Both the position numbers and the translations under genes were made by a program. Source: a virus (taxonomy: Duplodnaviria > Heunggongvirae > Uroviricota > Caudoviricetes). Taken from it: a stretch of DNA of 19,664 nucleotides. The notes beneath the pieces are model-generated. The model worked only from the letters and a program-made list of their open reading frames with translations. It searched no databases and was not told where the DNA came from. Location: IMG/VR virus record IMGVR_UViG_2667527633_000005; one strand, given 5' to 3'. Below are positions 1 to 14,716 of this stretch, piece after piece. How positions within the stretch are numbered: the stretch's first letter is position 1; each line of letters begins with the position of its first letter.

Positions 1-177
1 CTACCNNNNNNNNNNTACTTTTGCGCCTCCCAGCCGGACCGGCGCTGCGGCGTAATACGCGGCAATTTCACCAATCCAGCCGGTCAGCCTTTCCCGCTGC
101 TCCTGACTGTTCGCGCCCAGAATAAAATCCATCGCTGACTGCGTATCCAGCTCACTCTCAATGGTGGCGGCATACAT
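1..177 (-). CDS. hypothetical protein, 5' portion only (runs off window start; N-run 6..15 inside)
   Basis: Minus-strand frame opening with ATG at 177..175 (MYAATIESELDTQSAMDFILGANSQEQRERLTGWIGEIAAYYAAAPVRLGG...). Absent from the ORF track because there is no stop in the window. No family recognised. Confidence 0.3.
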   Translation of the reverse strand: MYAATIESELDTQSAMDFILGANSQEQRERLTGWIGEIAAYYAAAPVRLGGAKVXXXX

Positions 178-257
178 CGCCTTTATGAAAAGACAGGAAA
201 AAATAAAATTTAAAAACAGTACATTACGAATGCTCAGACCTATCGTTTAAAGGAGTC

Positions 258-279
258 GCAATACACACTGCAATACACG
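258..279. repeat. left copy of 21-bp direct repeat gcaatacacaCtgcaatacac (two tandem GCAATACAC half-sites); candidate att/arm-type site at left island end
   Basis: Matches 10950..10970 (gcaatacacaTtgcaatacac) at 20 of 21 positions; a further GCAATACACA copy lies at 10920..10929 beside the integrase start. Confidence 0.45.
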
Positions 280-312
280 ATTATTTATAAGATGAGCGGC
301 ATCCGTCATAAA

Positions 313-551
313 GCTGGTGGATGCTTTTTCTATGCATATATGCACAGTTTTAGTGGGCGTTAATGTCGATATAGGGATCCCCATATCGAGATTGGATACC
401 TGGCTTTTTTCCGGTTAACCTTTAATCAGGCTGGTGGGCTTTACCTGTTTTGTATGAGTGGTCATCATGACCATGTCATAACAAAAACCCCATATTCGTG
501 GTTTTTCTGTGTCGGGCTATTCTGTCGTTGCTGTGCTGATTTGGCTGGTGG
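313..551 (+). other. cluster of three Chi octamers 5'-GCTGGTGG-3' in one orientation (313..320, 430..437, 544..551)
   Basis: Exact octamers read directly from the sequence within 240 bp of non-coding DNA; palindromes GTCGATATAGGGATCCCCATATCGA (367..392) and GGTCATCATGACC (461..473) lie between them. Confidence 0.75.
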
Positions 552-617
552 GCTGAATCATCATTACGGCGATGCAGCTATGTAGACGTTCCGGCCTCCT
601 CAAATTGAGGATTGTGG

Positions 618-778
618 AAGAATCAATGGGTTAGTCTTACTTTCCCGACATCCCCCAATGGGGGTTTTCGAAACAATCAATAGCTTAGGCTTACTTCCCC
701 GATTTCCTGCATTGCAGGTTTTCGAAATAATCAATGGGTTAGGCCATCGTGCAATTTTGCACTTTGCCAGCCAGCGCA
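618..778 (+). repeat. tandem ~55-bp repeat array (about 2.5 units), each unit with ATCAATGGGTTAG..CTTACTTCCCGA plus a short GC-rich hairpin followed by TTTTCGAAA
   Basis: Units begin near 622, 678 and 731. Hairpins: CCCCCaatGGGGG (about 652..668), CCTGCattGCAGG (706..718), GTGCAAttTTGCAC (759..772). A second repeat family GCCAGCGCAAT..CGCGTTATC occurs near 768..795 and 955..984. Confidence 0.6.
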
Positions 779-992
779 ATGTCGCGTTATCAGTCCTCAG
801 ATGTGAGGGATGTAGCCAGCTTTTCCCCCAGTGGGGGATATCCAGCACCGACGGCTTAACTGTGCGTGCCAGCACAAGGTAGCCTTGAACTACTTACTGC
901 ATCCCATCTTACAGGCCGTGCCTTCCTGCTTAACTTTTTGCAATGCAACAAGTCAGCCAGCGCAATTTTGCGTTATCGGGAATATCAGCAAG

Positions 993-1274
993 TTACCGCC
1001 GCAATCGTTCCGGCTTCTTCCACTGGTAAGTATTTTTCGCGCTCTCCCTCCGTTGTTGAGAACGGCGACGATATGCCAGCAACTCAAGGACTCTTGTTCG
1101 TATGTTGCGCATATCCACGCCGTTAAGCTCAATACCGTCACGGCGCATCACCTCAGCCACTACACGCACATAATTATCTGCGGTCACGCTGTCCGGCTGC
1201 GTGGCCTGTTCGTCATGCTGCTTGCTGATTCCACAAGCACGGCGGATTAATCGCAGTATTTCGGATTCAGTCAT
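993..1274 (-). CDS. hypothetical small protein (93 aa) with arginine-rich C-terminus
   Basis: ORF with ATG at 1274, directly downstream of the terS-like gene on the same strand; C-terminus RRRSQQRRESAK..KKPERLRR suggests nucleic-acid binding. Weak RBS, no family recognised. Confidence 0.4.
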   Translation of the reverse strand: MTESEILRLIRRACGISKQHDEQATQPDSVTADNYVRVVAEVMRRDGIELNGVDMRNIRTRVLELLAYRRRSQQRRESAKNTYQWKKPERLRR

Positions 1275-1356
1275 AGCGTACTACGTTACTTATCTTTATT
1301 CGGCTGCAACTTATCCGGTACGTTTCCGGCAGTTTCCATCAGATAATCGGACAGCA

Positions 1357-1827
1357 TCAGCGGTATGTTTTCGTCAAGTTTTGCGCATGCGTTACAGGCT
1401 CTGATAACTTCTTTTTCAGTCCATCCAGCATAGACGGCTTCATGTCGGGAAACTTCCTTGTCATGGCAAGCGGCAGGCTGTCCATGATTGAAGAAATCTG
1501 ACTCGCCAATTTTGAAAGCACGTATATACAAAACGCTGTATCAATAACGTCGCCGCGTTCGCGCTCGTTTTTAAGCTCCTGCGCCTCTGCCTGTGCTGTC
1601 AGCAATCTGATCCTGACTCGTAGGAGTTCATCATCATCAATCTCGCCTTTGTCGTCTGTAATCTGGTTAATTGCATTGCTAACCCGATTGTCTATTACGC
1701 TGGCAACATCATAAAACGCCTCGCGGCCTTTACGTTCAACGGGAGTCACTCCCCACTTGTCGAACGCTGTCGCACTTACACGGCAGCTTTGCGCCATGTT
1801 TTTTTTGTTCATCAGGTGCGATTTCAT
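1357..1827 (-). CDS. terminase small subunit, phage lambda Nu1-like
   Basis: LLTAQAEAQELKNERERGDVIDTAFCIYVLSKLASQISSIMDSLPLAMTRKFPDM aligns with lambda Nu1 (..RLTRAQADAQELKNARDSAEVVETAFCTFVLSRIAGEIASILDGLPLSVQRRFPEL) as I recall it. Start placed at ATG 1827 (GGGGA RBS 5 nt upstream); the track ORF begins at GTG 1839. Lies about 135 bp downstream of cosN, as in lambda. Confidence 0.85.
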   Translation of the reverse strand: MKSHLMNKKNMAQSCRVSATAFDKWGVTPVERKGREAFYDVASVIDNRVSNAINQITDDKGEIDDDELLRVRIRLLTAQAEAQELKNERERGDVIDTAFCIYVLSKLASQISSIMDSLPLAMTRKFPDMKPSMLDGLKKKLSEPVTHAQNLTKTYR

Positions 1828-1939
1828 CAATATCCCCACTTAAGTAATGTTTCAGGTTGGTGTATTGGCTTTATCTTTTCCTTTTTATTCATAGAGATAG
1901 AGCGAACAACAAAACCACCACCAGCACCCGAAAAAGGCT

Positions 1940-1990
1940 CATAAATAGCGAAAACCCGCGAGGTCGCCGCCCCGTAGCCTACCGGATCGC
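1940..1990 (-). other. lambda-type cohesive-end site (cosN core = reverse complement of 1961..1972, GGGCGGCGACCT, plus conserved flank)
   Basis: Minus strand reads ..ACG GGGCGGCGACCT CGCGGGTTTTCGCTATTTATGAg.., matching the lambda left-end/cosN sequence from memory; positioned immediately upstream of the Nu1-like gene. Confidence 0.8.
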
Positions 1991-2028
1991 CGGAAAGGAC
2001 CCGCCAGCCAGAACGGGCCCTAATTTCA

Positions 2029-2412
2029 TCAACCAATCAACTTATAGCGACCATCCCGTGCATTGCGACGTACACGCTCAATCTTGAGGCATAGCGCCGC
2101 ATCTGGCTTTTTTGGGACAGGTACGCGGCAATATTCAGAAGATCGAGGAATATTGTTTATCCAGTCGATCACTTCACTTAAATACCAGGCCTTACGCCCT
2201 TCCGTAACCTGCACACGCTCCGGGAACTCTCCACTAGCCTCAAGGTTTAGCAATGTGCGACGGCTAAGGGTAGTAAGTTCCATCACCTGATTCATATCAA
2301 CAAGGCGTTCACTTAAACGCATTTTGTCAGCAATAGCCTTTAATTCCTCTACTGCTGGATCCGGATACATCATTTCGGCAATTGGCTTAAGGTCATTGTA
2401 ATGATTCTGCAT
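2029..2412 (-). CDS. AlpA/excisionase-like HTH regulator (127 aa)
   Basis: Central segment MELTTLSRRTLLNLEASGEFPERVQVTEGRKAWYLSEVIDWI resembles the AlpA/Xis-type winged HTH; GGGGGA RBS 4 nt before ATG 2412; sits between the decoration gene and cos. Confidence 0.55.
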   Translation of the reverse strand: MQNHYNDLKPIAEMMYPDPAVEELKAIADKMRLSERLVDMNQVMELTTLSRRTLLNLEASGEFPERVQVTEGRKAWYLSEVIDWINNIPRSSEYCRVPVPKKPDAALCLKIERVRRNARDGRYKLIG

Positions 2413-2423
2413 TGTATCCCCCT

Positions 2424-2765
2424 TTACACACGAGCCAGCGGCTGAACAGAAATACCTGAGCCAACAAACGCGGCAACCTTTGCCGACAGTTCTTTTACAG
2501 ACTCAGGCCAGTTCAGAGCATCAACATTTAAAACACCTGTCTTATAAACCTGTGCCTGTGTTTTTTTCGCTGTGTCGATTTGTACAGCGGAAACATAAAC
2601 CGCTTTACCTACGCTCGAACCATCCCATACCACCAGTGCACCTGTTGCATCTTCCTGCATCAGTGGCGTAAATGCAGGAATTACCCCTTTATTAGCTGAA
2701 AATATCCCCAGCGTAGTCACCAGTGCTTCAGTGCCAGCCATGAGTTCAGTGTAATGAGTAGCCAT
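2424..2765 (-). CDS. head decoration protein, phage lambda gpD-like
   Basis: TPLMQEDATGALVVWDG..VYKTGVLNVDALNWPE..AAFVGSGISVQ parallels lambda gpD (TPLMLDTSSRKLVAWDG..FYKSGTFRYEDVLWPEA..TAFAGTAISIV, from memory); GGGGGAG RBS overlaps the stop of the upstream capsid gene. Confidence 0.8.
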   Translation of the reverse strand: MATHYTELMAGTEALVTTLGIFSANKGVIPAFTPLMQEDATGALVVWDGSSVGKAVYVSAVQIDTAKKTQAQVYKTGVLNVDALNWPESVKELSAKVAAFVGSGISVQPLARV

Positions 2766-2774
2766 TGCTCCCCC

Positions 2775-3815
2775 TTAGCCAATGCGAACGGTAACAAAAC
2801 GATTGATGCGGGCCGGTATTGGCTGTGGTGCTGAATGTGTCTGCACATATTCAATAGCCGGATCACCAGGCACAATATAGTTTTTCGGTGCAAGTTCGGC
2901 TTTAGTCAGCCCCATTCGGATTAGCTCCGGATCCTGAATACCGCCATAGGCGACAATCCCCTGAAGAGCCGTATTGCCAAGCACCATCAAATCAGGATCA
3001 AGGAAATGTTTTTCTGTTCCGTCCTCGTCGGTATAACGCCCGCTGTAAACAACAATCGCAACATCGCCCATATACCCTTTAAAACTCACCGAATCACCAA
3101 GGTCTTTAAGGGCCGTTTCCAGTTCGGAATTAGAACCACGACGGGTATCCAAAGCCTCTTTTATCGCTCTGAATGAACGGTATTTCTTCCATACATTACC
3201 ACCCATAATGATGATATTAGTGACGCCCTCACTAAATTCTGCGTAGCTCTCAATATCATCATTTGGATCAAAAGTTTCTTTATCCTTACCTGACCACTCA
3301 GTACCGCCAGACTGAGTGATGATATTTTGTGGTTTTATATTCCAGTCCAGCTCATAACGTTCAATACCATCGCCCTCAATGATATTTTTCCCCGTTGTGA
3401 TTGCCTGAACAGCAAGCCATTCAATACGTGCACGAATAGCTTTAGCCTGATTTACAATCGCCTGTTTAACTTTAATATTACGTGCCCCAAAAGCATTGTA
3501 TTGCTCAGGTGATACACCAGCAGGGCGCACAGCTAACTTATTTGGATCAATGCTGCTTTTCGGCTTCATATAGCCTGGACGAATTGTTTTTGATTCGTAC
3601 CCTTCGTCACGTGAAACTTTACTACCCACCATAGGAGAACAAAACGCTGCAATTGGGATATTTGGATCGTCGATTGTATCAAGAATAATATCGCGCGATT
3701 CAAACATTACCGAGCGAGTAAAAAACAAACTGGTAAACAACGCATTTAGTTGTTTTTGTACATCTACAGCATTAACCACCTGTACAAGCTGAGTAGGCGA
3801 ATATAAATCAACCAT
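2775..3815 (-). CDS. major capsid protein, phage lambda gpE-like
   Basis: Long collinear match to lambda gpE, e.g. NIITQSGGTEWSGKDKETFDPNDDIESYA..YRSFRAIKEALDTRRGSNSELETALKDLG..YMGDVAIVVYSG..MVLGNT. Start set at ATG 3815 (AAGAGG 6 nt upstream; aligns with the gpE N-terminus); the track ORF extends to 4028, but a stable hairpin at 3990..4020 argues against that extension. Confidence 0.85.
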   Translation of the reverse strand: MVDLYSPTQLVQVVNAVDVQKQLNALFTSLFFTRSVMFESRDIILDTIDDPNIPIAAFCSPMVGSKVSRDEGYESKTIRPGYMKPKSSIDPNKLAVRPAGVSPEQYNAFGARNIKVKQAIVNQAKAIRARIEWLAVQAITTGKNIIEGDGIERYELDWNIKPQNIITQSGGTEWSGKDKETFDPNDDIESYAEFSEGVTNIIIMGGNVWKKYRSFRAIKEALDTRRGSNSELETALKDLGDSVSFKGYMGDVAIVVYSGRYTDEDGTEKHFLDPDLMVLGNTALQGIVAYGGIQDPELIRMGLTKAELAPKNYIVPGDPAIEYVQTHSAPQPIPARINRFVTVRIG

Positions 3816-3989
3816 ACGCATCCTCTTTGCATTCATTAAAAATAATTGTGGATATATGCTACCACCGATATTTGTCATGCGAACACATGCAACCGAGTGC
3901 AATGTTGTATAAAGTTTTGGGGTGACAACTTCAGTGCGGACAATTAGTGTTAATATCTTCACTCCCTTTGGTCGGGATTTATGTAGCAT

Positions 3990-4020
3990 GCCGGAAAATT
4001 TATTTTTTCCGGCCTTTTTT
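3990..4020 (+). terminator. intrinsic-terminator-like hairpin (GCCGGAAAA-tttatt-TTTTCCGGC followed by a T-run), plus-strand orientation
   Basis: Perfect 9-bp stem 3990..3998/4005..4013 with T6 at 4015..4020, in the gap between the SSB-like stop (4032) and the capsid gene; on the minus strand it is a hairpin without a U-tract. Confidence 0.4.
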
Positions 4021-4031
4021 ATTGGCAATAT

Positions 4032-4481
4032 TTAAAACGGGATATCATCTCCCCATTGCTCATTATCTCCCACTGGTGGCTGGCTTCCTTGCTGATCTGC
4101 CTGTTGTTTTGCTCTGTTCAGTTCGTCAGTAGCCTGCCCCTGTTGGCCTTTTTTGCCGCCCGGTCGCGCCGTTCGCGCACTGATTACGCTGTCTGCGATA
4201 ACCTGCCAGCCCCGCCGCGTTTCGCCGTTCTGGCCTGTCCACTGGCTTACCTGCATGTTACCCGCCACGCTCACCAGTTCGCCTTTGTGGTGTTTTGCCA
4301 GTGCGTCGGCCTGTCTGCCAAACGCCAGGACGGATAACCACATCGTCGCCGTTCCGTCATCTGCCTGGCTGCACGGCAGGGGAACCGCCATACTCGCCAT
4401 CGCCATTTGTGTCCCTTTGCTGGTGGTCTTTAACTGCGGGTCAGCCACCAGCCGCCCGTAAGCCGCTATCTGTGCTGTCAT
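4032..4481 (-). CDS. single-stranded DNA-binding protein-like (C-terminal acidic DDIPF tail)
   Basis: Ends ..NEQWGDDIPF, the hallmark SSB C-terminal tail, preceded by a Gly/Gln-rich linker and an N-terminal domain compatible with an OB fold; overlaps the upstream ORF by 4 bp. Confidence 0.65.
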   Translation of the reverse strand: MTAQIAAYGRLVADPQLKTTSKGTQMAMASMAVPLPCSQADDGTATMWLSVLAFGRQADALAKHHKGELVSVAGNMQVSQWTGQNGETRRGWQVIADSVISARTARPGGKKGQQGQATDELNRAKQQADQQGSQPPVGDNEQWGDDIPF

Positions 4482-4792
4482 GCTGTCTGCTCTCCGGTTT
4501 TAACATTGATGGTTGTCACCTGTTCCGCTTCGGCAATCTCCCGTTCTGTCAGCGTGGCAAAGTTTGCCGCTGCTGTGGTCATGAATGCGCTTATCAGGTC
4601 GGGATGTTCCTTCGCGTATCCTGCCCGTGTGTGGTGGTCTATCGCTTTGATTGCCACCTTTAAGGAAAGCTCTGTCATGTCTAACGCTTTATATTTTGCC
4701 TGTGTTCTGTCTCTGCGAATTTTGGTCATTTGTCGCCCCTGATTCATGTTTTCGGCTGGCATGTTTATTAAGTGATTTTTATGTATGCGCAT
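4478..4792 (-). CDS. hypothetical protein (104 aa; start uncertain, several in-frame ATGs)
   Basis: ORF immediately downstream of the iteron origin and translationally coupled to the SSB-like gene; no family recognised. Confidence 0.45.
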   Translation of the reverse strand: MRIHKNHLINMPAENMNQGRQMTKIRRDRTQAKYKALDMTELSLKVAIKAIDHHTRAGYAKEHPDLISAFMTTAAANFATLTEREIAEAEQVTTINVKTGEQTA

Positions 4793-4843
4793 TTATTTTC
4801 ACCCCCCCCTCGTTTAAAAAGTTTTTAGTTGTGCCTCCCCCCC

Positions 4844-5061
4844 TCTACCCATCTACCCGAATGCTCATCATGTCAGTAATGGCGCGGCTTTCAGCGGGTA
4901 GATAGCTTTTTGACTCCTCTACCTGCCGTCTACCCTGCTACCTGAAACTGATAAAATCAGGTAGAAGAGGTAGAGAGCTTTTATTAGCCTTCTACCTAGC
5001 CCTATACCCACTTATCATGTTGAATAATATGCGTTTATTTTGTTCAGGTAGATGGGGTAGA
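4844..5061. repeat. iteron array (TCTACC forward, GGTAGA inverted; at least 10 copies) with adjacent AT-rich DNA: putative replication origin of the island
   Basis: TCTACC at 4844, 4852, 4918, 4929, 4991; GGTAGA at 4897, 4960, 4969, 5047, 5056 (pairs spaced 8-11 bp); AT-rich stretches at 5018..5045 and 5066..5090; immediately 3' of the primase/helicase gene. Confidence 0.6.
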
Positions 5062-5077
5062 TGGCTTTTACAAAAAA

Positions 5078-6832
5078 TTATAAAAACGCGTCGCAATCGT
5101 CTGTTGTAATTGCGTTGGTCTGCGTTACTCCCTTAACTTTTCGCGTAATATATTCATGCCCGTAAACTTTCGCCGCTGGCTTCATGGCCTTGCTGAACTC
5201 AGCCACGTTTAGCGGTTTGCTCCTGCCCGCGTATGCCATAAACGCCAGATAGACGCGGTAAAGGCTGTTCCTGGTCGTGTACTTCACTGAATCACCACCG
5301 CCACCCATCATCAGGCCGCGCGCTTCCTCCAGAAAATTCAGGAACTGGCAAAACTCAATAACCGGATCCGTCTGTTGCTTTATTGCCAGTGCTTCATCAC
5401 CGTCACGCTGTTCCAGTAGTAAAGCCCGTGCCTTCTCAGGGTCGGTAAAGTTCGCCAGCAATCGGCGGATAATAACGGGGATTTCAGCCGCAATCTTTTC
5501 CGGTAGCTCCCTGTCTTTTTCGGCCTCACTGACGATATTGTCGAAACGGAAAATCACGCGACGACGTGCCACACCTCCGGCCCGTTCGGTGAATATCATC
5601 GGGTTGTTGTTGGTCGCCAGCACCACCGCCCTGATTACCGCCGTGAAACGCTTTTCATATTTCGGGTTAATTTCCACGGGGTCGCCGCCTGTGATTTTCT
5701 TGATGCCCGTTCCTTCGCCTGTATATTTCGGCTGGTCAGCCAGGACGATAAGACGACTCCCGACAACCTGCGCACGTCCACCAGCATCATCAAGCGATGT
5801 CATTTCAGCGCTTACCGTGTTCTGTTTCCCTGCCAGAAGGCTGGCTATGTGTGTGAATGTACTTTTACCGCTCCCGCCGTCTCCGGTGGCCTCAATAAAC
5901 ATCTGCCAGTCGTACCGGTTCGCCATAATCATGTACAGCGCGGCACATATACGCATCATCTTGCGCGGGTCTTTTCCGGCTGCGTGCTCAAGCCATTTAT
6001 GAAAGTTTGGCGCGTTATCGCGGATGTTCTCCCCTGGTGCTGGTGGCGTGTACTCAATGCCGTTGTGCGTGGTGATCCAGTTCTCCGGCGTGTGCGGGGA
6101 AAATTCCCCCGTTTTCAGGTCAAGCGCACCATTGGCGAACGGCAGCAAATCGCCAGACGGCTCGCCCATTGGTTCGGCAATAACTTTTAACGCTTCCACG
6201 GCGTTATTGATTACGCGCTTGCTGAAAGTGGCCCTGTGCTCTGAATAGATCGCCACCATTTCGCGGCTAAGTTCCATTGTGCTGACCGGACACCATACCC
6301 CGCCGCGCCATACGTGAACGATTTCACTTTCAGGATGTACGCAAACGCCATCAAAGCGATCGGCAAGCAACTGCGCGCGCTCACTGTCCGCCATCTGCGA
6401 AAGTTGCGCCTTTTGCTTTACCGGAAGCTCAATGACCAGACCATCAGAAAGATTCTGGCGTTCACGGGCCAGATATTCGCGCCAGTTCTGCACCTCCTGG
6501 CCGTGCATACCCTCAGGATAAAAATTTGCATCCTGTACGCCTGCTGCCGCCAGCTTCTGACCAATCGCCTTTATCATTACAGGCGCAAGATATCCGGCCC
6601 TGTATATGCGTGCTGATTTTCGGCCTTCCGGCACAATTTGCAGATTATCCAGTTCGGATAGCTGCTGCTCCCCAAGCCACACAGGAGGCTCATTATCTCC
6701 GGCCATACGCGCATCATGTTCCTGCCATTGTTTCGCGTGTGCCCAGGCATCACTACCCGCAAAAATAATGACTTCTGTTCCTTTGTGTTTTATGCCGCGT
6801 GACTGCTGTTTTACGTTCGGTGCCAGTTTCAT
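5078..6832 (-). CDS. P4-family primase/helicase (Pri-Rep-like replication initiator)
   Basis: 584-aa ORF with Walker A IEATGDGGSGKSTFTHIASLLAGK and a C-terminal region typical of phage/plasmid P4-type primase (D5_N/SF3 helicase-like); the position (small ORFs, pri, then iteron ori) matches satellite replication modules. Confidence 0.9.
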   Translation of the reverse strand: MKLAPNVKQQSRGIKHKGTEVIIFAGSDAWAHAKQWQEHDARMAGDNEPPVWLGEQQLSELDNLQIVPEGRKSARIYRAGYLAPVMIKAIGQKLAAAGVQDANFYPEGMHGQEVQNWREYLARERQNLSDGLVIELPVKQKAQLSQMADSERAQLLADRFDGVCVHPESEIVHVWRGGVWCPVSTMELSREMVAIYSEHRATFSKRVINNAVEALKVIAEPMGEPSGDLLPFANGALDLKTGEFSPHTPENWITTHNGIEYTPPAPGENIRDNAPNFHKWLEHAAGKDPRKMMRICAALYMIMANRYDWQMFIEATGDGGSGKSTFTHIASLLAGKQNTVSAEMTSLDDAGGRAQVVGSRLIVLADQPKYTGEGTGIKKITGGDPVEINPKYEKRFTAVIRAVVLATNNNPMIFTERAGGVARRRVIFRFDNIVSEAEKDRELPEKIAAEIPVIIRRLLANFTDPEKARALLLEQRDGDEALAIKQQTDPVIEFCQFLNFLEEARGLMMGGGGDSVKYTTRNSLYRVYLAFMAYAGRSKPLNVAEFSKAMKPAAKVYGHEYITRKVKGVTQTNAITTDDCDAFL

Positions 6833-7128
6833 TTTTTACCTCTGAATCCGTTAATCATGGTTTTCATTTTCTGGATATTTCCCCACGCTTTTTCCCTGCT
6901 GATGGGCTTACTGCGGGGTGCGGCATATACCAGGGGAAAATCACGCCGGAACTGATAAACAGGCATCACGCAGTCATAGCTATACCCCTCACGGCGGTAA
7001 GTGATGCGCCGTTCTGCCACGCCTTTAATCGTTACCGTGCCGCCGTATTTATCGCGGTAAATATCGCCGTTCATAAATTCAGGTCGAGCGGGGCCGCTGG
7101 CAATAAAGCCAGAATTTTTCATTTCCAT
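6829..7128 (-). CDS. hypothetical protein (99 aa)
   Basis: ORF overlapping the primase start by 4 bp (coupled); no family recognised. Confidence 0.5.
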   Translation of the reverse strand: MEMKNSGFIASGPARPEFMNGDIYRDKYGGTVTIKGVAERRITYRREGYSYDCVMPVYQFRRDFPLVYAAPRSKPISREKAWGNIQKMKTMINGFRGKK

Positions 7129-7145
7129 ATTATTTATTCCTCGAC

Positions 7146-7367
7146 TTAACTCGACTTATTTGATAGCAGGGCACTATTTATTGCGTCATTGAGTTTTTCT
7201 GCTGATTCATCAATAAGTGACAACAGGCCATAAGCAATATTTGCATCTTCATTGTCATTTATGCAATCAAGCCACATATTTAATATTGCTTTTGCTGAAT
7301 TATTTAAAGTTAATGAACTTTCTGCACATGCTAACAATTTAAAAAAGACTTCCCGTTCTGTATTCAT
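7146..7367 (-). CDS. hypothetical protein (73 aa), encoded in a visibly AT-rich segment
   Basis: ORF in the same operon string; local base composition is much more AT-rich than the flanking genes. Confidence 0.4.
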   Translation of the reverse strand: MNTEREVFFKLLACAESSLTLNNSAKAILNMWLDCINDNEDANIAYGLLSLIDESAEKLNDAINSALLSNKSS

Positions 7368-7559
7368 TTAATCCCCCACCAGCTTACTTTCTTCCTCAAT
7401 CAAAAAACTAGCGACACTTCCCGAAAGACGCGCCAGTAGGCTCGCCAGTGCGGATATATCAGCATCTGTAATTTTGTTCGGGTATACCTCAAGAAGGCGG
7501 CAAATAATTTCTGTCTGGTGCGCACGTTCAGCGGCTTCGTGTAATGTAATTTCCTGCAT
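7368..7559 (-). CDS. hypothetical protein (63 aa)
   Basis: ORF abutting its neighbours with no gap (7367/7368; shares nt 7559 with the upstream ORF). Confidence 0.4.
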   Translation of the reverse strand: MQEITLHEAAERAHQTEIICRLLEVYPNKITDADISALASLLARLSGSVASFLIEEESKLVGD

Positions 7560-7744
7560 TAATGCACCTCTTTTAATTCATACACTGCTGAAATAATGAC
7601 TTGTGATAAGCCATATTCTGATGATTCGCTTCTCACCGCAGCAATAGCCGTCTGAACATTAACAGCCTTCACATTCTGAGCGATACCAATTGTGTGGCCT
7701 ATTGGGTTAACAGCTCGGGCAAATACACGGAAGGTTTTAAGCAT
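7559..7744 (-). CDS. hypothetical protein (61 aa), first gene of the leftward operon
   Basis: ATG at 7744 preceded by GGGAG (6-nt spacer); lies immediately downstream of the divergent control region. Confidence 0.45.
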   Translation of the reverse strand: MLKTFRVFARAVNPIGHTIGIAQNVKAVNVQTAIAAVRSESSEYGLSQVIISAVYELKEVH

Positions 7745-8025
7745 GACTCACTCCCTGGCGGATTTTTGCAGCGAATACAGCAACACAACCGGACGGGCAA
7801 CGGCTACGCGCTTCGCGTTCCGTCCAGGCGGTTACGTGGATGATTTGAGATTCTCCGGCACTCAGTGCCAGAAAACGCCACACAAAGGCCGTTTGTGTGT
7901 GTACAAGGTGTGGTATATGATTTACAGCAACCATAACGGCTCCTAGTTTACGTTGTTGGTTAGACGCCCCGTATGTGTTCCCAGCACTGCGGGGCGTTGC
8001 TCTTTGTATTTCAACAATCCTTTCG

Positions 8026-8103
8026 GTGTGTTTCATGTTATGAGCGCATGAAACACACGTCAAGGCTTTTTGTATTTCTTTTTTTGTGTATACTGAAACA
8101 CAC
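8026..8103. promoter_or_regulatory. operator-like sites in the divergent control region: GTGTGTTTCATG-N9-CATGAAACACAC (8026..8058) plus a third TGAAACACAC (8094..8103) overlapping a TATACT -10-like hexamer (8089..8094)
   Basis: Perfect 12-bp inverted repeat read directly; located 20-100 bp upstream of the RHH gene start (8125, AGGAG RBS) and within the 380-bp gap separating the two divergent transcription units. Confidence 0.5.
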
Positions 8104-8124
8104 CGATGATTAGGAGTTTCAGAA

Positions 8125-8430
8125 ATGGCAACGGCTAACAAAAACGCAAAATCACAACTGACAACTGTCAGAGTCCCACTAGATGTTATGCAAGGGATGG
8201 AATCCGTTAAGCTGGACGGTGAAAGCAATGCCGGATTTATCGTAACCGCCATGCGCGGAGAAATAGCCCGCCGCCAAGCAGAAGGCAGCGGAGAAAATCC
8301 CCTTGTGTCGTCACTGGATGCCCTGGCTAAGGTCGAACAAATCGGCATCAAAGCAGCCGAGGAGATCGGGCAACTCGTCACCGTCGCGCGTGAAGAACTC
8401 CAGCGACGCAAGGTCAAAGAGCATGAATAG
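8125..8430 (+). CDS. ribbon-helix-helix (CopG/Arc-like) DNA-binding protein; candidate island repressor
   Basis: N-terminal LTTVRVPLDVMQGMESVKLDGESNAGFIVTAMRGEI has the strand-helix-helix pattern of RHH regulators; strong AGGAG RBS; transcribed opposite to the main island operon. Confidence 0.55.
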   Translation: MATANKNAKSQLTTVRVPLDVMQGMESVKLDGESNAGFIVTAMRGEIARRQAEGSGENPLVSSLDALAKVEQIGIKAAEEIGQLVTVAREELQRRKVKEHE

Positions 8431-8487
8431 CCAATATCAGCGCCATAGTTTGAGGAACGCAGGCGCATTGCTTTACAGGACAGCACC

Positions 8488-8667
8488 ATGAGCGACACAG
8501 AATCAACCAAAACACCATCACCAACTCGTAAGAGACGACGCAAAAATATAGCGCATGAACATGAATCAGAAAGATTCGCACCTTGTTCGTTTGCTCTTGA
8601 GAAATTCCTTAAAGAGCACAGGAAAAAGCTCTCGTTGCAAACCTTGGAACGAACCAAATCTGACTGA
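8488..8667 (+). CDS. hypothetical small basic protein (59 aa)
   Basis: ATG 8488 to TGA 8665..8667 (MSDTESTKTPSPTRKRRRKNIAHEHESERF...), below the ORF-track length cut-off; follows the RHH gene and precedes a strong terminator. Confidence 0.4.
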   Translation: MSDTESTKTPSPTRKRRRKNIAHEHESERFAPCSFALEKFLKEHRKKLSLQTLERTKSD

Positions 8668-8733
8668 TCACATTGCCCACCAGCCGCAAATGTGGCATTG
8701 TTGGTGATGCTTTTGTTTTCCCTTGTTCCCACT

Positions 8734-8765
8734 GGCGACCCTTTTGCGGTCGCCTTTGTTTTGTC
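8734..8765 (+). terminator. rho-independent terminator (GGCGACC-cttttgc-GGTCGCC followed by TTTGTTTTGTC)
   Basis: 7-bp GC-rich stem with T-rich tail, read directly; placed between the convergent plus-strand pair and the Bro-N gene. Confidence 0.6.
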
Positions 8766-9342
8766 ACTGAATGCGGTTACCAAAGTAAAACTCAGGCTGA
8801 TATTCACGTATCAGCGTTTTTTCTTCTTCCTCCAGCTCACGCTTTTTGCGCTTACATGCCTGTAGCTCCCTCCCCTTCTCGCTGGCACTTATTTGATATT
8901 GCTCTTTACGGCGGGAAAAATCCTGTAATGCACCCCACGGGATACCATAAGTCCCCGTTTTTCTGATACCTGGTATCACATTTCTGAATACCCAGTTACT
9001 GAAACGATGAGCAAATGTGCCAGGCGTCGTTGCTTTGCGGCTGCGGGCTATTAGTTTGTAGAAACCTGACTCAGAGATAATTCTCATATTCTGATTTCCT
9101 CCTGGGGTGTAAGTTAAATTTACTCCCTTTTCATCATCATCAAGCATCTGCAACGCCGTACGCGAATTGGTTAGTTCCAGCGCAGCACAAACATCTTTTG
9201 CAACAAACCACGGATCGCCGTTCAGATACACCACACGAACGTTCACACTATCAAAGCGCAGAACGACGAGATCACGAATATCGCAGAATTTTTTCACTGG
9301 ACGAGCGTACCCCTTGCCCGTCACGGCAATATTTTTATTCAT
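8764..9342 (-). CDS. Bro-N domain protein (phage antirepressor-like) with coiled-coil C-terminus
   Basis: N-terminal region (..NGDPWFVAKDVCAALELTNSRTALQMLDDDEK..) is typical of Bro-N/AntA DNA-binding domains; C-terminus is charged and heptad-like (RELQACKRKKRELEEEEKTLIREY). Confidence 0.75.
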   Translation of the reverse strand: MNKNIAVTGKGYARPVKKFCDIRDLVVLRFDSVNVRVVYLNGDPWFVAKDVCAALELTNSRTALQMLDDDEKGVNLTYTPGGNQNMRIISESGFYKLIARSRKATTPGTFAHRFSNWVFRNVIPGIRKTGTYGIPWGALQDFSRRKEQYQISASEKGRELQACKRKKRELEEEEKTLIREYQPEFYFGNRIQ

Positions 9343-9362
9343 CGCGTTTTTACCTTATAGAC

Positions 9363-9385
9363 AAAAAACCCCTCGTGATGAGGGG
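9363..9385 (-). terminator. rho-independent terminator on minus strand (CCCCTC-gtgat-GAGGGG; U-tract from the A6 run 9363..9368)
   Basis: Hairpin 9369..9385 directly downstream of the alpA stop (9399), followed on the minus strand by six U. Confidence 0.5.
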
Positions 9386-9398
9386 CATTATTTACTGG

Positions 9399-9656
9399 TT
9401 ATTGCTGTTTTGTTTTTCCAGGTTTCCATCCAGGATGCCACTCACCACGGATCCATGCCTGAACCTCTGAAAGTCGATACCCTGCAGCACGTTCACCGAT
9501 CTTGATACGTCGCGGGAATTTACCTGCCTGCTCCATTTTCCAGCGTGTTGAGTTTGCCAGCGTGGTAAGTGCTATGCACTCTTTTTCACGAATGAACCGA
9601 TCAATGTCCTTCATTGTGCGCAAATCGTTTTCATCAACAAGAGAATAAATTGCCAT
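9399..9656 (-). CDS. alpA: AlpA-family transcriptional regulator / excisionase-like protein
   Basis: 85 aa; ..CIALTTLANSTRWKMEQAGKFPRRIKIGERAAGYRLSEVQAWI is typical of AlpA (prophage CP4-57 regulator family); start is 2 bp after the integrase stop. Confidence 0.85.
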   Translation of the reverse strand: MAIYSLVDENDLRTMKDIDRFIREKECIALTTLANSTRWKMEQAGKFPRRIKIGERAAGYRLSEVQAWIRGEWHPGWKPGKTKQQ

Positions 9657-9657
9657 A

Positions 9658-10899
9658 TCACACCACCTCTTTATTAAGCTCGATAACGTTGTTGTTAAAT
9701 CCTGCTATCGTATTAAGGTAATTAACCCACATATTAAGCACCTCAAGTTTTTTCTTTATATGCCTGCTTTTATTGTAAACACCAGCAACCCCTTTCACTT
9801 TATGACCTAAAAGAAGTTCGACAATATAAGGATCCGCCCCCATATCATTAAGCGTAGTGGAAAATGTGCGCCTGAAATCATGTATGCACCACAAGCCATT
9901 AGTATCATGACCAAGACGCCTGCATATTCTGTTTGCAGCCCCTGTTATTGTCGCCCTTTGCAAAGCACAACCGACAACATAACCGCGATTTTTTGTTTCT
10001 GCGTAAAGATTAACGATCCATTGTTTTATTCCGTCAGGAACAGGCCTTACTATAGCCTCCTTGTTTTTGCTGTGCTCTTTTGGGACTGTCCATACCCAGT
10101 TTTTTAAATCCCATTCGTCCCAGGTGGATAGCCTCGCCTCCTGCTGTCGGCAACCAAACACCAGGCAGATAACCATTATTCTTCGGTTATATATTGATGA
10201 CAGAGTTAGCAAATTATTACCGTAAGCATAAGACCATACATCAGCGGTTTCATTGATATTAAGAACGCGATCCCTTATACCGGATGAGCGCCCGACATAA
10301 CTTACGTTAATATCTCCAAAGGGATCGCACGCGATGTATTGCCTGACGCGACAAAAACGCAACGCCTGTTTGATATCAAGAAAAATTGCACCAGACATAA
10401 CAGGCGCATTTTTTTTGATCCTGTCAAAGACGGTAAGCCATGTGTGTAATTTGCACTGTTCTATAGCCATATCACCGATATAGGGGAAGATATGCTTTTC
10501 AAATCGTTTTATTAAATATTCATGCTCTTTTCTGGCTGTTGTGGCGTGATTGTCGTACCAGTAAAACAGCGCATCCCTTACGGTCACTGGTTGCATAGTT
10601 TTTTCGGCAGCAAGTTTTATTTGCCTGCGGGGGTCCAGATTTTCAGCCAGCCATTCACGGCACTGATCACGCATGCGCCTGGCCGTTGCAAGAGACATGT
10701 CAGGATAGCGACCAAGTGTAAGCCATACCGGAGGGGATTCCCTGCCACCAAGACGATAGTAAAAAACAAAGCTGATCCCCCCAACCATGCTTACACGCAC
10801 AGACAACCCGCGCCCATCCGCTATTGTTTTTTGTTTGTCCTGCCGTTTTCCGACAAGACTCTTTAACAGTTTGTCACTGAGTTTGTTTTCAATAGCCAT
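9658..10899 (-). CDS. int: tyrosine site-specific integrase, P4-type
   Basis: 413 aa; N-terminal arm-binding-like region (LSDKLLKSLVGKRQDKQKTIADGRGLSVRV..FYYRLGG); C-terminal catalytic motifs HDFRRT..LLGH..GVY; GAGGG RBS 7 nt before ATG 10899. Confidence 0.95.
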   Translation of the reverse strand: MAIENKLSDKLLKSLVGKRQDKQKTIADGRGLSVRVSMVGGISFVFYYRLGGRESPPVWLTLGRYPDMSLATARRMRDQCREWLAENLDPRRQIKLAAEKTMQPVTVRDALFYWYDNHATTARKEHEYLIKRFEKHIFPYIGDMAIEQCKLHTWLTVFDRIKKNAPVMSGAIFLDIKQALRFCRVRQYIACDPFGDINVSYVGRSSGIRDRVLNINETADVWSYAYGNNLLTLSSIYNRRIMVICLVFGCRQQEARLSTWDEWDLKNWVWTVPKEHSKNKEAIVRPVPDGIKQWIVNLYAETKNRGYVVGCALQRATITGAANRICRRLGHDTNGLWCIHDFRRTFSTTLNDMGADPYIVELLLGHKVKGVAGVYNKSRHIKKKLEVLNMWVNYLNTIAGFNNNVIELNKEVV

Positions 10900-10919
10900 T
10901 AAAAGCCCTCAAGAGATTT

Positions 10920-10970
10920 GCAATACACACCCATCCCGATCGCCAATTTGCAATACACATTGCAATACAC
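10920..10970. repeat. right copies of the GCAATACACA repeat (10920..10929; 21-mer gcaatacacaTtgcaatacac at 10950..10970); candidate attR/arm-type or AlpA/Int operator sites
   Basis: Direct repeat of 258..278 (20/21 identical); located in the integrase promoter region. Confidence 0.45.
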
Positions 10971-11174
10971 AAAACCGCGAAAAACTGGAAGGGTGATGAA
11001 CGGTCATCAAAAGCATGGAAAACGACATTCCAGACGCAGCAAGGGTTTCAGTGGAGTTGGCGAACGATGCGGGCAACTACGGTGAGATGATAGACATAAA
11101 TCGCCTTCACAATGGCGCTCTGCAGCTGCGTGTTCTGCAGCGTGTCGAGCATCTTCATCTGCTNNNNNNNNNNT

Positions 11175-11468
11175 GCCGGTTTTAAGGGGTTAATTTCTTC
11201 AAAAGTCAAATCTCGCCCGCAATGCTGTGACGATGACGCGATGATCATTTGTGGATGTATGGCTCGCCTGAAAAAAAACAACAGCGATTTGCATGATTTA
11301 TTGGTGGACTATTATGTCGGCGGCATGACTTTTATGGCGCTTGCACGTAAGCATGGGCGATCTGATTGTTGGGTTGGCAGGATGCTCCAGAAAGCTGAGG
11401 GCGTAGTGGAGGGCATGCTGATGGTGTTGGATCTCCGATTGGAGATGGATGCTGATTGTTCGAAATAA
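11175..11468 (+). CDS. phage antitermination protein Q-like, C-terminal portion (N-terminus lies across the N-run 11164..11173)
   Basis: ..[68 protein letters not shown]..: Cys cluster plus a sigma-region-4-like HTH, resembling small lambdoid Q proteins (DLP12 QuuD type, from memory). Context supports this: a terminator about 100 bp downstream and a lysis cassette further on. The track ORF's MALCSC.. N-terminus across the Ns is probably not real. Confidence 0.4.
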
Positions 11469-11566
11469 TTAAAAGAAAAGTTGCTGTCTGATTGTCATTA
11501 GTCTAACATTTTAAATGTTGGAATCGCAACGTAGTTATTATCATATAACAGCTTGTTTCCTGATTT

Positions 11567-11598
11567 AGCCAGCCTCCCCAAAGGCTGGTTTTTTTTCT
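11567..11598 (+). terminator. rho-independent terminator (CCAGCC-tccccaaa-GGCTGG + T8), tR'-like position downstream of the Q-like gene
   Basis: Hairpin 11569..11588 and T-run 11589..11598 read directly; a possible -35/-10 (TTGTCA ..TTAAAT) lies near 11495..11525. Confidence 0.55.
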
Positions 11599-11624
11599 AA
11601 TAAGTATCATTTCGGGTAGGGATT

Positions 11625-12149
11625 TTATTGTTTAACCCATAATAATTCATTGACATTGAATCCCAGCTTTTGAGCGGTTCGCACATAGTCTGCTTTTACT
11701 TTATCTGGAATAGTTGGGGTCCTTGCCAGAATCCATAGGTATTCTCTGTTCGGACCACTGACAAGAGCATACTTATACTCATCATCCAGTTTGATTACAT
11801 TATAGCCACCATAGAAGGGGCCAAAAAACGAAACCTTCAACGCTGCAGTTTTAGTATCTCCAGTAAAGTATGCTTTACCTTCGCTCTCGCTCCATTTATT
11901 TTTCGTTGGATCGTATCCACGGTTAAGTACACGAATCCCTCCGTCGTTCCGTTTTCCATAAGTAGCGCTGACCTGTTCCAGACCACGTTCGAACCGGTTC
12001 TCGAGGCGAGCTATTTCATACCATTTTCCGAGATAGCGGTTGGCGTCAAAATTTGTAATCGGCTGCACACCTTTAGGTGGTGTCGGGGCCTTACATGCTA
12101 TAAGAGTGAAAGAGAGTGCAATGCCAGTCAACACAGGCCATAACTTCAT
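11625..12149 (-). CDS. blc: outer-membrane lipoprotein lipocalin Blc
   Basis: Lipoprotein signal ..LTGIALSFTLIACKAP then NFDANRYLGKWYEIARLENRFERGLEQVSATY..GKAYFTGDTKTAALKVSFFGPFYGGYNVIKLD..YLWILARTPT, clearly Blc-like but only moderately similar to E. coli K-12 Blc; start set at ATG 12149 (AGGA RBS) rather than the track's 12209. Confidence 0.85.
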   Translation of the reverse strand: MKLWPVLTGIALSFTLIACKAPTPPKGVQPITNFDANRYLGKWYEIARLENRFERGLEQVSATYGKRNDGGIRVLNRGYDPTKNKWSESEGKAYFTGDTKTAALKVSFFGPFYGGYNVIKLDDEYKYALVSGPNREYLWILARTPTIPDKVKADYVRTAQKLGFNVNELLWVKQ

Positions 12150-12341
12150 AATAAATCCTGTACTTTTGATAGTTGAGGGTAAGTATGAAAGATAGATGAT
12201 TACGACCAATCACTTAAAGAACTTTTATACTATATTAGGAATAGTCCATAACAGAAAAATTGTCAGTGATGACGCCAGAAAGGCAATTTATTCCGTGCAC
12301 TACACAGTTTATCTGTTAATGAATTAGTCAAGGGGGAGGAT

Positions 12342-14606: not shown

Positions 14607-14684
14607 AAAAACACATGATGTAACGTGATGCGTTTTAATGATTTTGTAATTTTCGTATTTGATAATTTTATGATGCTTTCAGCT

Positions 14685-14716
14685 ACGCCAGAATAATCGC
14701 TGGCGTTTTTCTTTTT
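14685..14716 (+). terminator. rho-independent terminator (ACGCCAG-aataatcg-CTGGCGT + T-run)
   Basis: 7-bp stem 14685..14691/14700..14706 followed by TTTTTCTTTTT; downstream of the AraC remnant. Confidence 0.6.

Follow-up and report, generated by a model that had tools for sequence, protein, structure and literature searches.

The bro gene and the island that houses it

Positions 8764..9342 of the window, that is, the whole 19,664-nucleotide stretch analysed, contain bro, a minus-strand gene that opens with ATG at 9342, ends with the stop codon at 8766-8764 and encodes a protein of 192 aa. The gene lies within an island (176..11107) inserted in a lambdoid portal gene, in which we annotated the following features:

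176..183, unstranded: att identity block ATCGCCTT (reverse complement of aaggcgat), terS-distal end, exact 8-mer
7737..7946, minus strand: Icd-like ORF, first in the replication/late operon and divergent from ylcI (NCBIfam NF033153, 1.4e-17)
8125-8430, plus strand: YlcI/YnfO-family protein, 101 aa (NCBIfam NF041551, 1.6e-17)
8488-8667, plus strand: 59-aa ORF in a convergent unit with ylcI (PHROG)
8764..9342, minus strand: bro, Bro-N protein of 192 aa (ORF list, Pfam, PHROG, RefSeq identity)
9399..9656, minus strand: AlpA-family regulator/excisionase, 85 aa (Pfam Phage_AlpA, 5.4e-14)
9658..10899, minus strand: tyrosine integrase, 413 aa (Pfam Arm-DNA-bind_3, 3e-17, and Phage_integrase, 1.7e-14; PHROG 1)
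11100..11107, unstranded: att identity block ATCGCCTT, int-proximal end, exact 8-mer

The island is a known E. coli helper-embedded PICI, belonging to site group B:Phage_portal_2:241 of Tommasini et al. 2023 (PMC10111431). The att blocks, the split portal gene and the matching group block all place it there: 'aaggcgat' is the identity block given for HE-PICI group B_Phage_portal_2_241 (PMC10111431), and portal-gene fragments lie on both sides, one at 16..183 (minus strand) and the other reaching 11163, where the sequence piece stops in an N run. The identical island is carried by prophages of E. coli EC93 and APEC O2-211; in EC93 it is flanked by split portal pseudogenes on both sides, and Nu1/A/W lie upstream of the portal fragments around identical islands. 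The island has the same orientation as the portal gene that it interrupts. The helper that carries the identical island has a Q-type antiterminator gene, quuD, and a Q-type antiterminator also occurs in the window's second piece.

The gene order is int, alpA, bro, ylcI/icd, DUF4222, primase, ssb, capsid and terS, with the integration zone (int, AlpA) on one side of bro and the replication zone (primase, SSB) on the other. This is the placement of the 'Bro zone' that Tommasini, Mageeney and Williams 2023 described after int/alpA in Gram-negative PICIs and HE-PICIs (PMC10111431). The convergent ylcI/59-aa ORF pair (8125..8667) is matched by PHROG 6522 and 21027 and is annotated alike in relatives, and a promoter-like site for the Icd-like ORF lies at 8063-8035 on the minus strand.

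The initial annotation described a 192-aa protein with an N-terminal Bro-N-like domain at this locus, and both the reading frame and the domain are confirmed. Pfam Bro-N (PF02498) matches residues 34-124 with E=4.9e-20 over profile positions 1-96 of 96, and the score of 72.4 bits, against a curated gathering cut-off of 25.6 bits, supports family membership across the whole domain. Failure of the domain in a profile search had been named as grounds for abandoning the proposal, and with this result those grounds do not arise. At E<=0.01 the Pfam scan returned Bro-N only, and no nuclease, enzymatic or membrane domain; a sequence search of solved structures gave chance-level TonB matches only. PHROG 2593 'anti-repressor' matches Bro with E=3.8e-85. 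A word-indexed search retrieved 1707 homologues at E<=1e-3, and the Bro-N domain is common to 24,598 clusters at 50% identity. RefSeq WP_001038675.1, 'BRO-N domain-containing protein', is 100% identical to Bro, at the DNA level too, and occurs in many E. coli genomes; hundreds of genomes keep the bro reading frame intact. bro is a real gene, and it is already known: the genomic pattern and the protein had both been recorded before, in print and in RefSeq, respectively.

Cassette edges and slot occupancy

Terminators mark the two edges of the Bro cassette:

8734..8754, plus strand: terminator of the convergent ylcI-orf59 unit, right edge of the cassette (scan, Bro-less relatives)
9368..9386, minus strand: intrinsic-terminator hairpin and U-run in the alpA/bro gap, left edge of the cassette (scan, RNA fold)

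The 56 nt between alpA and bro hold only the terminator and a ribosome-binding site. The hairpin at 9386-9368 reads GCCCCUC-AUCAC-GAGGGGU, is followed by UUUUUG and folds at -16.1 kcal/mol (z=-2.0). The initial annotation had placed bro downstream of alpA beyond a weak terminator; the position is correct, whereas 'weak' does not describe a hairpin of regular intrinsic-terminator shape that is conserved. It is kept 5' of every E. coli bro cassette examined, its stem preserved by compensatory changes (CCCCTC/GAGGGG versus CCCCGC/GCGGGG), and the T-run and ribosome-binding site are identical in bro cassettes that stand behind unrelated alpA genes. At the other edge, homology with the Bro-less PICIs L059 and L060 resumes at 8762, right after the bro stop codon, so that in these elements alpA is followed by the ylcI-orf59 hairpin. 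The cassette comprises the terminator, the ribosome-binding site and bro. In other genera the bro orthologue has no terminator and is translationally close to an upstream ORF; terminator gating is therefore not universal.

A crude scan, of a kind that would miss activator-dependent promoters, found no sigma-70 consensus upstream of bro or int. The LexA scan (CTGT-N8-ACAG, one mismatch allowed) counted 7 matches over the window, where 6.0 would be expected, and no SOS box lies near 9343-9700, upstream of bro, or upstream of int.

The occupancy of the slot varies among relatives. It is empty in L059, L060 and L077, contains a pseudogene in EcCICFT073 and L075, holds an AntA/AntB protein with no tail in common with Bro in L076, and is occupied by another gene in L061. 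Lambda and phi80 both induce and transfer EcCICFT073, the model PICI, and AlpA alone induces it (PMC6092414). bro is an optional, swappable cassette that is dispensable in working relatives; its dispensability in EcCICFT073 is silent on the role of an intact bro where one is present.

The cassette also travels independently of its neighbours. L062 carries a Bro allele 95.8% identical to that of the island, yet its integrase is only 23% identical, its replicase is different and it has no matching alpA or ylcI. One Bro allele pairs with several ylcI/icd types, and which allele is present bears no fixed relation to the int, alpA, ylcI, icd and primase modules of the island.

Among the sampled E. 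coli loci, nearly all that are Bro-positive lie within portal or TerL genes and the Bro-less ylcI-positive ones are chromosomal, in two samples that were ascertained differently. Restriction of bro to helper-embedded satellites was rejected as a general rule, because bro orthologues lie beside ordinary chromosomal genes in six other genera (Providencia, Erwinia, Leclercia, Serratia, Klebsiella and Proteus).

Bro-N fold, alleles and the charged tail

The structure of Bro was modelled with AlphaFold2 (AF2) on a 40-sequence alignment. Bro begins with a disordered N-terminus, followed by the Bro-N domain (residues ~25-129) and a single long helix (136-181) rich in charged residues. Three regions were delimited:

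8956..9270, minus strand: Bro-N domain, residues ~25-129, predicted APSES/winged-helix-like fold
9073..9186, minus strand: hypervariable patch, residues 53-90 (column entropy and AF2 secondary structure)
8782..8937, minus strand: C-terminal charged helix, residues 136-187 (AF2, invariant columns, orthologue alignment)

The nearest folds to the Bro-N model are the baculoviral Bro-type N-domain and the APSES, Dachshund and DdrC DNA-binding domains, and the predicted fold falls within the Bro-N/KilA-N/APSES DNA-binding class. Bro-N is treated as a DNA-binding module in the literature (PMC10111431; PMC9043618), and the bro product is a probable DNA-binding protein.

Variation among 119 E. coli Bro variants is concentrated in a single patch. 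Column entropy in residues 53-90 is 0.56-0.91 bits, compared with at most 0.33 bits in all other 10-residue blocks and 0.01-0.21 bits in residues 91-192. The patch contains a predicted helix (60-65) and a predicted beta-hairpin (72-89), so that the alleles vary almost solely within what would be the recognition helix and wing; residues 53-90 are likely the specificity determinant of Bro.

The charged tail noted in the initial annotation was recovered as a predicted helix, continuous over residues 136-181 (pLDDT 66-77) and followed by a short one at 183-187; K/R/D/E make up 47% of residues 136-181. The family-invariant residues L139, Y149, A153, L160, C163, K167, L170, E174, L177 and Y181 appear, in our reading, to follow a 3-4 heptad spacing. 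The helix probably mediates dimerisation or partner binding. The tail is kept from Escherichia to Providencia and Aeromonas (14 genera-level orthologues aligned) and is specific to this family, since phage Bro-N proteins align over residues 24-133 only, without the tail. A tail-only query for fusions to other N-domains, run with a word index of limited sensitivity, returned four fragments, all of the same Bro family.

Candidate roles and known systems

Our preferred reading, held tentatively and rated a little under an even chance, is that bro encodes an accessory, terminator-gated, sequence-specific DNA-binding regulator that acts in trans on the helper or on a rival phage. Bro-N would read DNA through its APSES/winged-helix-like fold, with the recognition helix and wing swapped as alleles. 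Because no promoter specific to bro can be recognised and the terminator shields the gene from transcription of int-alpA, Bro would be made mainly on read-through. Two routes can be envisaged: Q-modified RNA polymerase could bring terminator-resistant helper late transcription into the island via the interrupted portal gene, a read-through into such embedded islands that was proposed by Tommasini et al. (PMC10111431), or transcription strongly boosted by AlpA could pass the terminator. By either route the helper would already be lytic when Bro is made; since the island is co-oriented within the helper late operon and a terminator precedes bro, expression most plausibly follows helper derepression. 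The uncoupling of the Bro allele from the island modules indicates that the target probably lies outside the island. The candidate target is DNA of the helper or of a competing phage, where Bro would modulate gene expression, and host DNA is less likely. The analysis shows the gene, its domain and fold similarity, the edges of the cassette, its dispensability in relatives, the conserved terminator and the allele pattern, whereas DNA binding, the timing of expression and an external target are what we infer for Bro; a protein–protein mode is also conceivable, as Bro-N is widely labelled antirepressor and some Bro-N proteins lie in genuine immI loci.

The initial annotation had proposed that the island may use Bro to induce or derepress a resident lambdoid helper, or to interfere with its regulation. 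A helper-directed regulatory role is plausible; the specific derepressor or antirepressor claim has nothing behind it beyond a database label, and the 'antirepressor' name is guilt by association. In the derepressor proposal, which we consider unlikely, Bro would bind the CI-type repressor of a resident lambdoid prophage, either the helper or another one, and trigger or lock in induction, like P4 epsilon with P2 or P22 Ant with C2. PHROG and many source annotations do name the family 'anti-repressor', the terminator shielding would suit a product that is harmful if leaky, and a satellite entering a lysogen would gain by helper induction, for which P4 is the precedent. In addition, Bro-N is 55% identical over residues 24-133 to that of Kapi1 gp065 and 56% identical to that of the PhiR12_5 'antirepressor protein'. 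However, these phage proteins have 304-314 aa and a C-terminal P22_AR_C domain, an extra domain found in the phage proteins that share Bro-N at 55-60% identity in immI-type antirepressor loci, whereas Bro has a 60-aa helical tail and its gene lies behind alpA and a terminator. The Kapi1 gene is directly behind two annotated Arc-family genes, and the PhiR12 gene, annotated as an antirepressor, lies within a small insert that separates tail genes L and K and whose other small ORFs are unannotated.

Bro has no P22_AR_C, ANT/KilAC or AntA domain, and bro shows neither a recognisable promoter of its own, tightly regulated as in immI/P22-type Ant loci, nor the upstream Arc/Mnt-type repressor genes of such loci; the sole candidate small regulator nearby, the YlcI-like protein, is encoded downstream and convergently. 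AriS-like proteins and Phi11 Gp07 share an N-terminal Bro-N (or the interchangeable AntA/pRha) with Bro and are annotated as antirepressors, but their activities, SOS inhibition (PMC9043618) and growth inhibition (PMC5944126), respectively, lie in the C-terminal ANT/KilAC and not in the N-terminal domain; Bro, without that C-terminal domain, falls outside their class. With no LexA box upstream, bro also falls outside the LexA-controlled antirepressors of the 186 Tum/Gifsy type. Working relatives manage without bro, and an embedded bro would be transcribed with the late genes of the helper or after them, at a stage that derepression has already preceded.

P4 epsilon, the 'helper derepression protein' that the initial annotation took as its analogy, is likewise encoded by a satellite, and its gene lies in an early/regulatory region beyond the AlpA homologue ORF88/Vis, on the downstream side. 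Epsilon has 95 aa and its own family, PF25738 'Derepression' (9e-51); Bro has no PF25738 match and an hhalign probability of 0.1% with epsilon, and a Pfam scan of the island's small ORFs found no PF25738 member.

Bro might instead inhibit growth of the host or a phage, as a Kil-like toxin, an abortive defence or a superinfection exclusion factor, which is improbable. Its swappable slot by int/alpA is a frequent place for satellite cargo, no gene has yet been assigned to helper interference in EcCICFT073-type PICIs (PMC6092414), and over-expression of a Bro domain alone caused transient growth inhibition in E. coli, although the Phi11 growth effect resides mainly in the KilA-C domain that is missing from Bro (PMC5944126). 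A defence-system reading was rejected, since bro and its small neighbours gave 0 matches among 5027 PADLOC defence models (PADLOC-DB 2.0). Bro also has no enzymatic or membrane domain. The P4 positional analogue eta/kil is toxic according to Tommasini et al. (PMC10111431), but Bro shows no similarity to the P4 eta/cI ORF, which matches Phage_ASH and has an hhalign probability of 0.1% with Bro. A P4-like immunity RNA in the Bro zone was also rejected, with no C4/isrK or other Rfam match (gathering or E<=1); the locus thus shows neither part of a P4-type immunity region (eta/kil and CI RNA).

A role inside the island, in which Bro would antagonise the YlcI/YnfO-like protein or activate the icd-primase-capsid operon once AlpA is on, is very improbable. 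bro does lie between alpA and the divergent ylcI/icd control region, a ylcI-type gene always comes next after the Bro slot in E. coli, and a Bro-N protein beside a putative ribbon-helix-helix protein would recall the arc/mnt-ant layout. That nature of the YlcI-like protein is itself only putative, with no Pfam or PDB sequence match and a single-sequence AF2 pLDDT below 50 for residues 1-37. Against such a role, Bro alleles do not go with particular types of replicase, ylcI, icd or alpA, relatives that share the ylcI/icd module have nothing in the slot, and EcCICFT073, which AlpA alone induces, has only a Bro remnant.

Least probable of all is a selfish passenger with no satellite–helper role, kept by recombination and derived from homing-endonuclease-associated modules: in published accounts Bro-network genes swap domains and are associated with homing endonucleases, the mosaic cassette moves between unrelated island backbones and decayed copies exist, but the full-length architecture of Bro, tail included, persists throughout Enterobacterales and Aeromonas with many positions invariant, bro is intact in hundreds of genomes, and Bro has no nuclease domain.

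The trans-acting regulator remains our preferred reading. A more ambitious version casts the Bro cassette as the missing factor by which enterobacterial PICIs would control their helpers in trans. In it, Bro would be an allele-switchable DNA reader or true antirepressor, produced only when Q-antiterminated late transcription of the helper, or strong AlpA transcription, overrides the conserved terminator, and would reprogramme transcription of the helper or of rival co-resident prophages. This version is doubtful, with somewhat better than an outside chance; if it were true, the hypervariable helix/wing alleles would correspond to different targets among phages. E. coli commonly harbours Gram-negative PICIs, whose interference with helper phages is strong, and the tested helper-interference candidate genes of EcCICFT073 were ruled out (PMC6092414). 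No other part of these satellites is as dynamic as the Bro zone, and binding of Bro to helper DNA or repressor, if true, would provide the first molecular handle on signalling from an enterobacterial satellite to a lambdoid helper.

Among known systems, the baculovirus BRO/Orf22 N-domain and the fungal APSES (Mbp1) DNA-binding domains share only 8-17% identity with Bro, are joined to other C-terminal parts and belong to a eukaryotic-virus or fungal context. The PLE protein CapR of Vibrio cholerae is a satellite DNA-binding protein that represses a helper gene (PMC8096241) and, like Bro, belongs to the wider Bro/KilA/T5orf172 network, providing a precedent for the action of a satellite Bro-zone protein; it is related to the DNA-binding regions of T5orf172/GIY-YIG homing endonucleases rather than to Pfam Bro-N. 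The satellites of Tommasini et al. (PMC10111431) are the same element type with the same order of int, AlpA, Bro-network gene, and replication and late zones. The Bro peptide GGNQNMRIISESGFYKLIARSRKATTPGTFAHRFSNWVFRNVIP corresponds exactly to catalogued segments b10.7-b10.9 (Supplementary File 2, PMC10111431), and nothing structural differs from the present island; no function is given there for the Bro-zone protein. To that account the present analysis adds the cassette edges, the conservation of the terminator, the allele pattern and the dispensability of bro.

Layout and identity of the island

The window was found to be stitched from pieces parted by N runs at 6-15 and 11165-11174. The first piece (16..11163) is 99-100% identical to E. 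coli chromosomes and contains the island, with the att 8-mer ATCGCCTT at 176 and 11100. The minus-strand order is a portal fragment, the att block, int, alpA, a hairpin with a T-run, and bro.

Features of the window
10899-9658, minus: int
9656-9399, minus: alpA
9386-9368, minus: hairpin and T-run in the alpA-bro gap
8764..9342, minus: bro, product of 192 aa
8125-8430, plus: YlcI/YnfO-family gene (ylcI), convergent with bro; NCBIfam NF041551, 1.6e-17
8488-8667, plus: 59-aa ORF (orf59), convergent with bro
8734-8754, plus: terminator of the ylcI-orf59 unit
Divergent from the ylcI unit, minus: operon of Icd-like ORF, small ORFs, DUF4222, D5-type primase, SSB, major capsid, head decoration, second AlpA-like gene and TerS
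2029-2412, minus: second AlpA-like gene, 127 aa; PHROG 2790, 2.2e-48
11112-11468, plus: Q-like antiterminator fragment, broken by the N run
11625-12209, minus: lipocalin
12342-13301, second piece: 2-thiouracil desulfurase/DUF1722 gene
13781-14053, second piece: IS1 InsA
Also in the second piece: S21-type holin, DUF1327, lysozyme, Rz and GYF_2 protein

An identical island in E. coli EC93 interrupts a lambdoid portal gene, with quuD, lysis genes, nohD, terL and W upstream of the split portal and protease, decoration and capsid genes downstream. The island is the helper-embedded phage-inducible chromosomal island (HE-PICI) published by Tommasini, Mageeney and Williams (PMC10111431); their supplement assigns to group B_Phage_portal_2_241 an identity block, 'aaggcgat', whose reverse complement is the island's att block. 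The same work divides Gram-negative PICIs into Integration, Bro, Replication and Late zones (PMC10111431), and its Bro-segment catalogue holds the conserved core segment of Bro verbatim (b10.7-b10.9). A 2026 survey of Enterobacter satellites likewise places BRO or AntA/AntB proteins, YlcI/YnfO and Icd beside int/alpA. The co-location of a Bro-N gene with int/alpA, noted in the initial annotation, is therefore real, yet previously described; the literature and RefSeq already hold the protein, this type of island and its int/alpA/Bro order.

The decamer TGCAATACAC occurs in three copies just upstream of int (10919-10970) and once near the opposite island end (269-278); integrase probably binds these copies as arm-type sites. 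In the non-coding stretch that separates the last island ORF from the att site, a 54-bp tandem repeat (621-744; 2.3 copies, 80% matches) is a possible packaging or replication site. The second AlpA-like gene lies between the head-decoration gene and terS, remote from the integration module, and the satellite has its own capsid and decoration genes.

The second piece (11175-19664) carries a lambdoid late region, read on the plus strand. It may represent the same helper prophage's upstream portion, set in opposite orientation. The EC93 prophage around the identical island resembles DLP12 (quuD, essD, rrrD, rzpD, nohD); its major capsid gene (23612-24579 of the EC93 locus) has an internal stop, and this 'helper' may be defective.

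The ylcI gene and the icd-primase-capsid operon are divergent, and a 3.45-kb stretch around ylcI (7500-10950) has at least a partial match in 1426 of 5426 E. coli genomes. Gram-negative PICIs have no known master repressor (PMC6092414), and the YlcI/YnfO-family protein looks like a candidate. By eye, its N-terminus resembles a ribbon-helix-helix motif; Pfam and PDB sequence searches returned no match, and a single-sequence AlphaFold2 model was unreliable over residues 1-37. The EC93 helper has its own ylcI gene adjoining nohD. Within the Icd-like ORF, a hairpin with a T-run (7879-7899, minus) comes shortly downstream of a promoter-like site (8063-8035); by analogy, it recalls how the P4 early operon is controlled through transcription termination. 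Searches for C4/isrK or another Rfam family gave no match at either threshold.

The Bro protein and its predicted structure

Profile searches confirmed the Bro-N domain proposed in the initial annotation: the full Pfam profile matched residues 34-124 (E=4.9e-20; 72 bits, cut-off 25.6), and PHROG 2593 'anti-repressor' matched at E=3.8e-85, with no match in NCBIfam or PADLOC. The bro DNA is 100% identical to that encoding WP_001038675.1 ('BRO-N domain-containing protein') in many complete E. coli genomes, and some version of bro was present in 298 of 5426 genomes.

An AlphaFold2 model built from an alignment of 40 diverse family members (mean pLDDT 70.7) leaves residues 1-23 disordered, folds residues 25-129 into a compact alpha/beta domain and, after a short linker, continues as a single long helix (136-181). 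This helix, with 47% charged residues and heptad-like spacing of the family's invariant residues, bears out the charged tail also claimed at the outset, and Bro may oligomerise through it. Beyond the matches to the domain, a structure search returned coiled coils aligned to the tail. The predicted fold agrees with the prevailing understanding that Bro-N is a DNA-binding module akin to KilA-N/APSES (cited in PMC9043618, PMC5944126). Matches in BFVD were Bro-N proteins from phages and from large DNA viruses, adding no functional information.

An optional cassette, probably terminator-gated

In the related E. coli PICIs L059, L060 and L077, nothing fills the slot that separates alpA from the ylcI unit; L075 and EcCICFT073 have a pseudogene there, L076 an AntA/AntB protein and L061 an unrelated ORF on the reverse strand. 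In the empty-slot islands, the shared terminator stands immediately 3' of alpA and homology to the window restarts at 8762, straight after the bro stop codon. The Bro-N domain of EcCICFT073 is reduced to a degenerate 51-residue trace; at 7001-7600 of the E. coli CFT073 locus, this remnant and a shortened 59-aa YlcI/YnfO gene occupy the position equivalent to bro/ylcI. Even so, AlpA induces EcCICFT073, and lambda and phi80 mobilise it at high frequency (PMC6092414). Bro is thus an optional cassette outside the core excision, replication and packaging circuit, and results with that model say nothing on intact Bro cassettes.

All E. coli cassettes examined begin alike, with a G+C hairpin, a T-run, a conserved spacer containing GAGG/AAGG, and ATG. 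The stem carries compensatory changes between variants, and this start unit is kept even behind unrelated alpA genes. A crude scan found no sigma-70-like promoter upstream of bro or int, and no LexA box is present. A second hairpin within the bro 3' end (8796-8815, both strands; T-run on the plus strand) could serve as a back-up terminator against convergent ylcI-orf59 transcription running into bro.

The island is oriented like the interrupted late gene, and helper late transcription has been proposed to enter the satellite, with SOS sensed by the helper's own cI (PMC10111431). The helper around the identical island has a Q gene, and a fragment of one also lies in the second piece of the window. 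Intrinsic terminators do not stop lambda-type Q-modified polymerase. In the simplest reading, bro would stay off during quiescence and be expressed when the helper has already entered late lytic development; very strong AlpA transcription would be an alternative trigger.

Function of Bro and comparison with known systems

Column entropy across 119 E. coli Bro variants peaked in residues 53-90 (0.56-0.91 bits per 10-residue block); all other blocks were at or below 0.33 bits, and residues 91-192 stayed at 0.01-0.21 per block. In the AlphaFold2 model, the hypervariable patch forms a short helix (60-65) and a beta-hairpin (72-89), which would correspond to the DNA-reading elements of winged-helix/APSES-type domains. 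The Bro allele is uncoupled from the remainder of the island: L062 encodes a 95.8% identical Bro beside a 23% identical integrase and a different replicase, with no matching alpA or ylcI, and one other allele was found with several ylcI/icd types. This uncoupling argues for a target beyond the island's own modules. The best-supported reading, held tentatively at somewhat under even odds, is that Bro is an accessory regulator that binds helper or rival-phage DNA in trans and with sequence specificity, its expression being gated by the terminator.

The initial annotation had instead proposed a helper derepressor, which we now consider unlikely. The family name, the P4 precedent and the occurrence of Bro-N in proteins at, or annotated as, phage antirepressor loci speak for it, and a terminator would suit a dangerous product. 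However, Bro lacks every domain that accompanies Bro-N at those loci, and activity in two dissected relatives maps to an ANT/KilAC domain at the C-terminus (PMC9043618, PMC5944126). Bro is also unrelated to P4 epsilon and to the P4 eta/cI ORF, bro is dispensable, and its presumed late expression would fit poorly. A growth-inhibitory or exclusion factor is less probable still, an island-internal regulator, against which the uncoupled alleles count, slightly more remote, and a largely selfish passenger the least credible.

Added here are the precise limits of the cassette, the conservation of its terminator, the confinement of hypervariability to one patch, the independence of bro from island modules and its decay in the model PICI; they yield a concrete, testable hypothesis and should not surprise a specialist.

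Among 50,697 phage records, 1162 matched Bro, only four with at least 80% query coverage, all from Paenibacillus phages (38-40% identity). Enterobacterial phage proteins align solely over residues 24-133 (55-60% identity). Two were inspected: Kapi1 gp065, whose gene immediately follows a pair of Arc-family genes in a P22-like phage, and a PhiR12 protein that bears the annotation antirepressor and comes from a small insert among tail genes. They are 304-314 aa long and end in a P22_AR_C domain, whereas Bro has its helical tail in that place. At full length, Bro-N plus tail forms a distinct family of 185-205 aa in Enterobacterales and Aeromonas, only a handful of the 24,598 Bro-N clusters at 50% identity, and the tail is kept throughout. 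Orthologues from Providencia, Erwinia, Leclercia, Yersinia, Serratia, Klebsiella, Raoultella and Proteus are found 2-3 kb downstream of an integrase, in islands that also encode homologues of primase, SSB or Icd. Outside Escherichia, the orthologue is not preceded by a terminator and lies close behind an upstream ORF. For Bro as a DNA-binding regulator, the nearest working precedent is CapR of PLE (PMC8096241).
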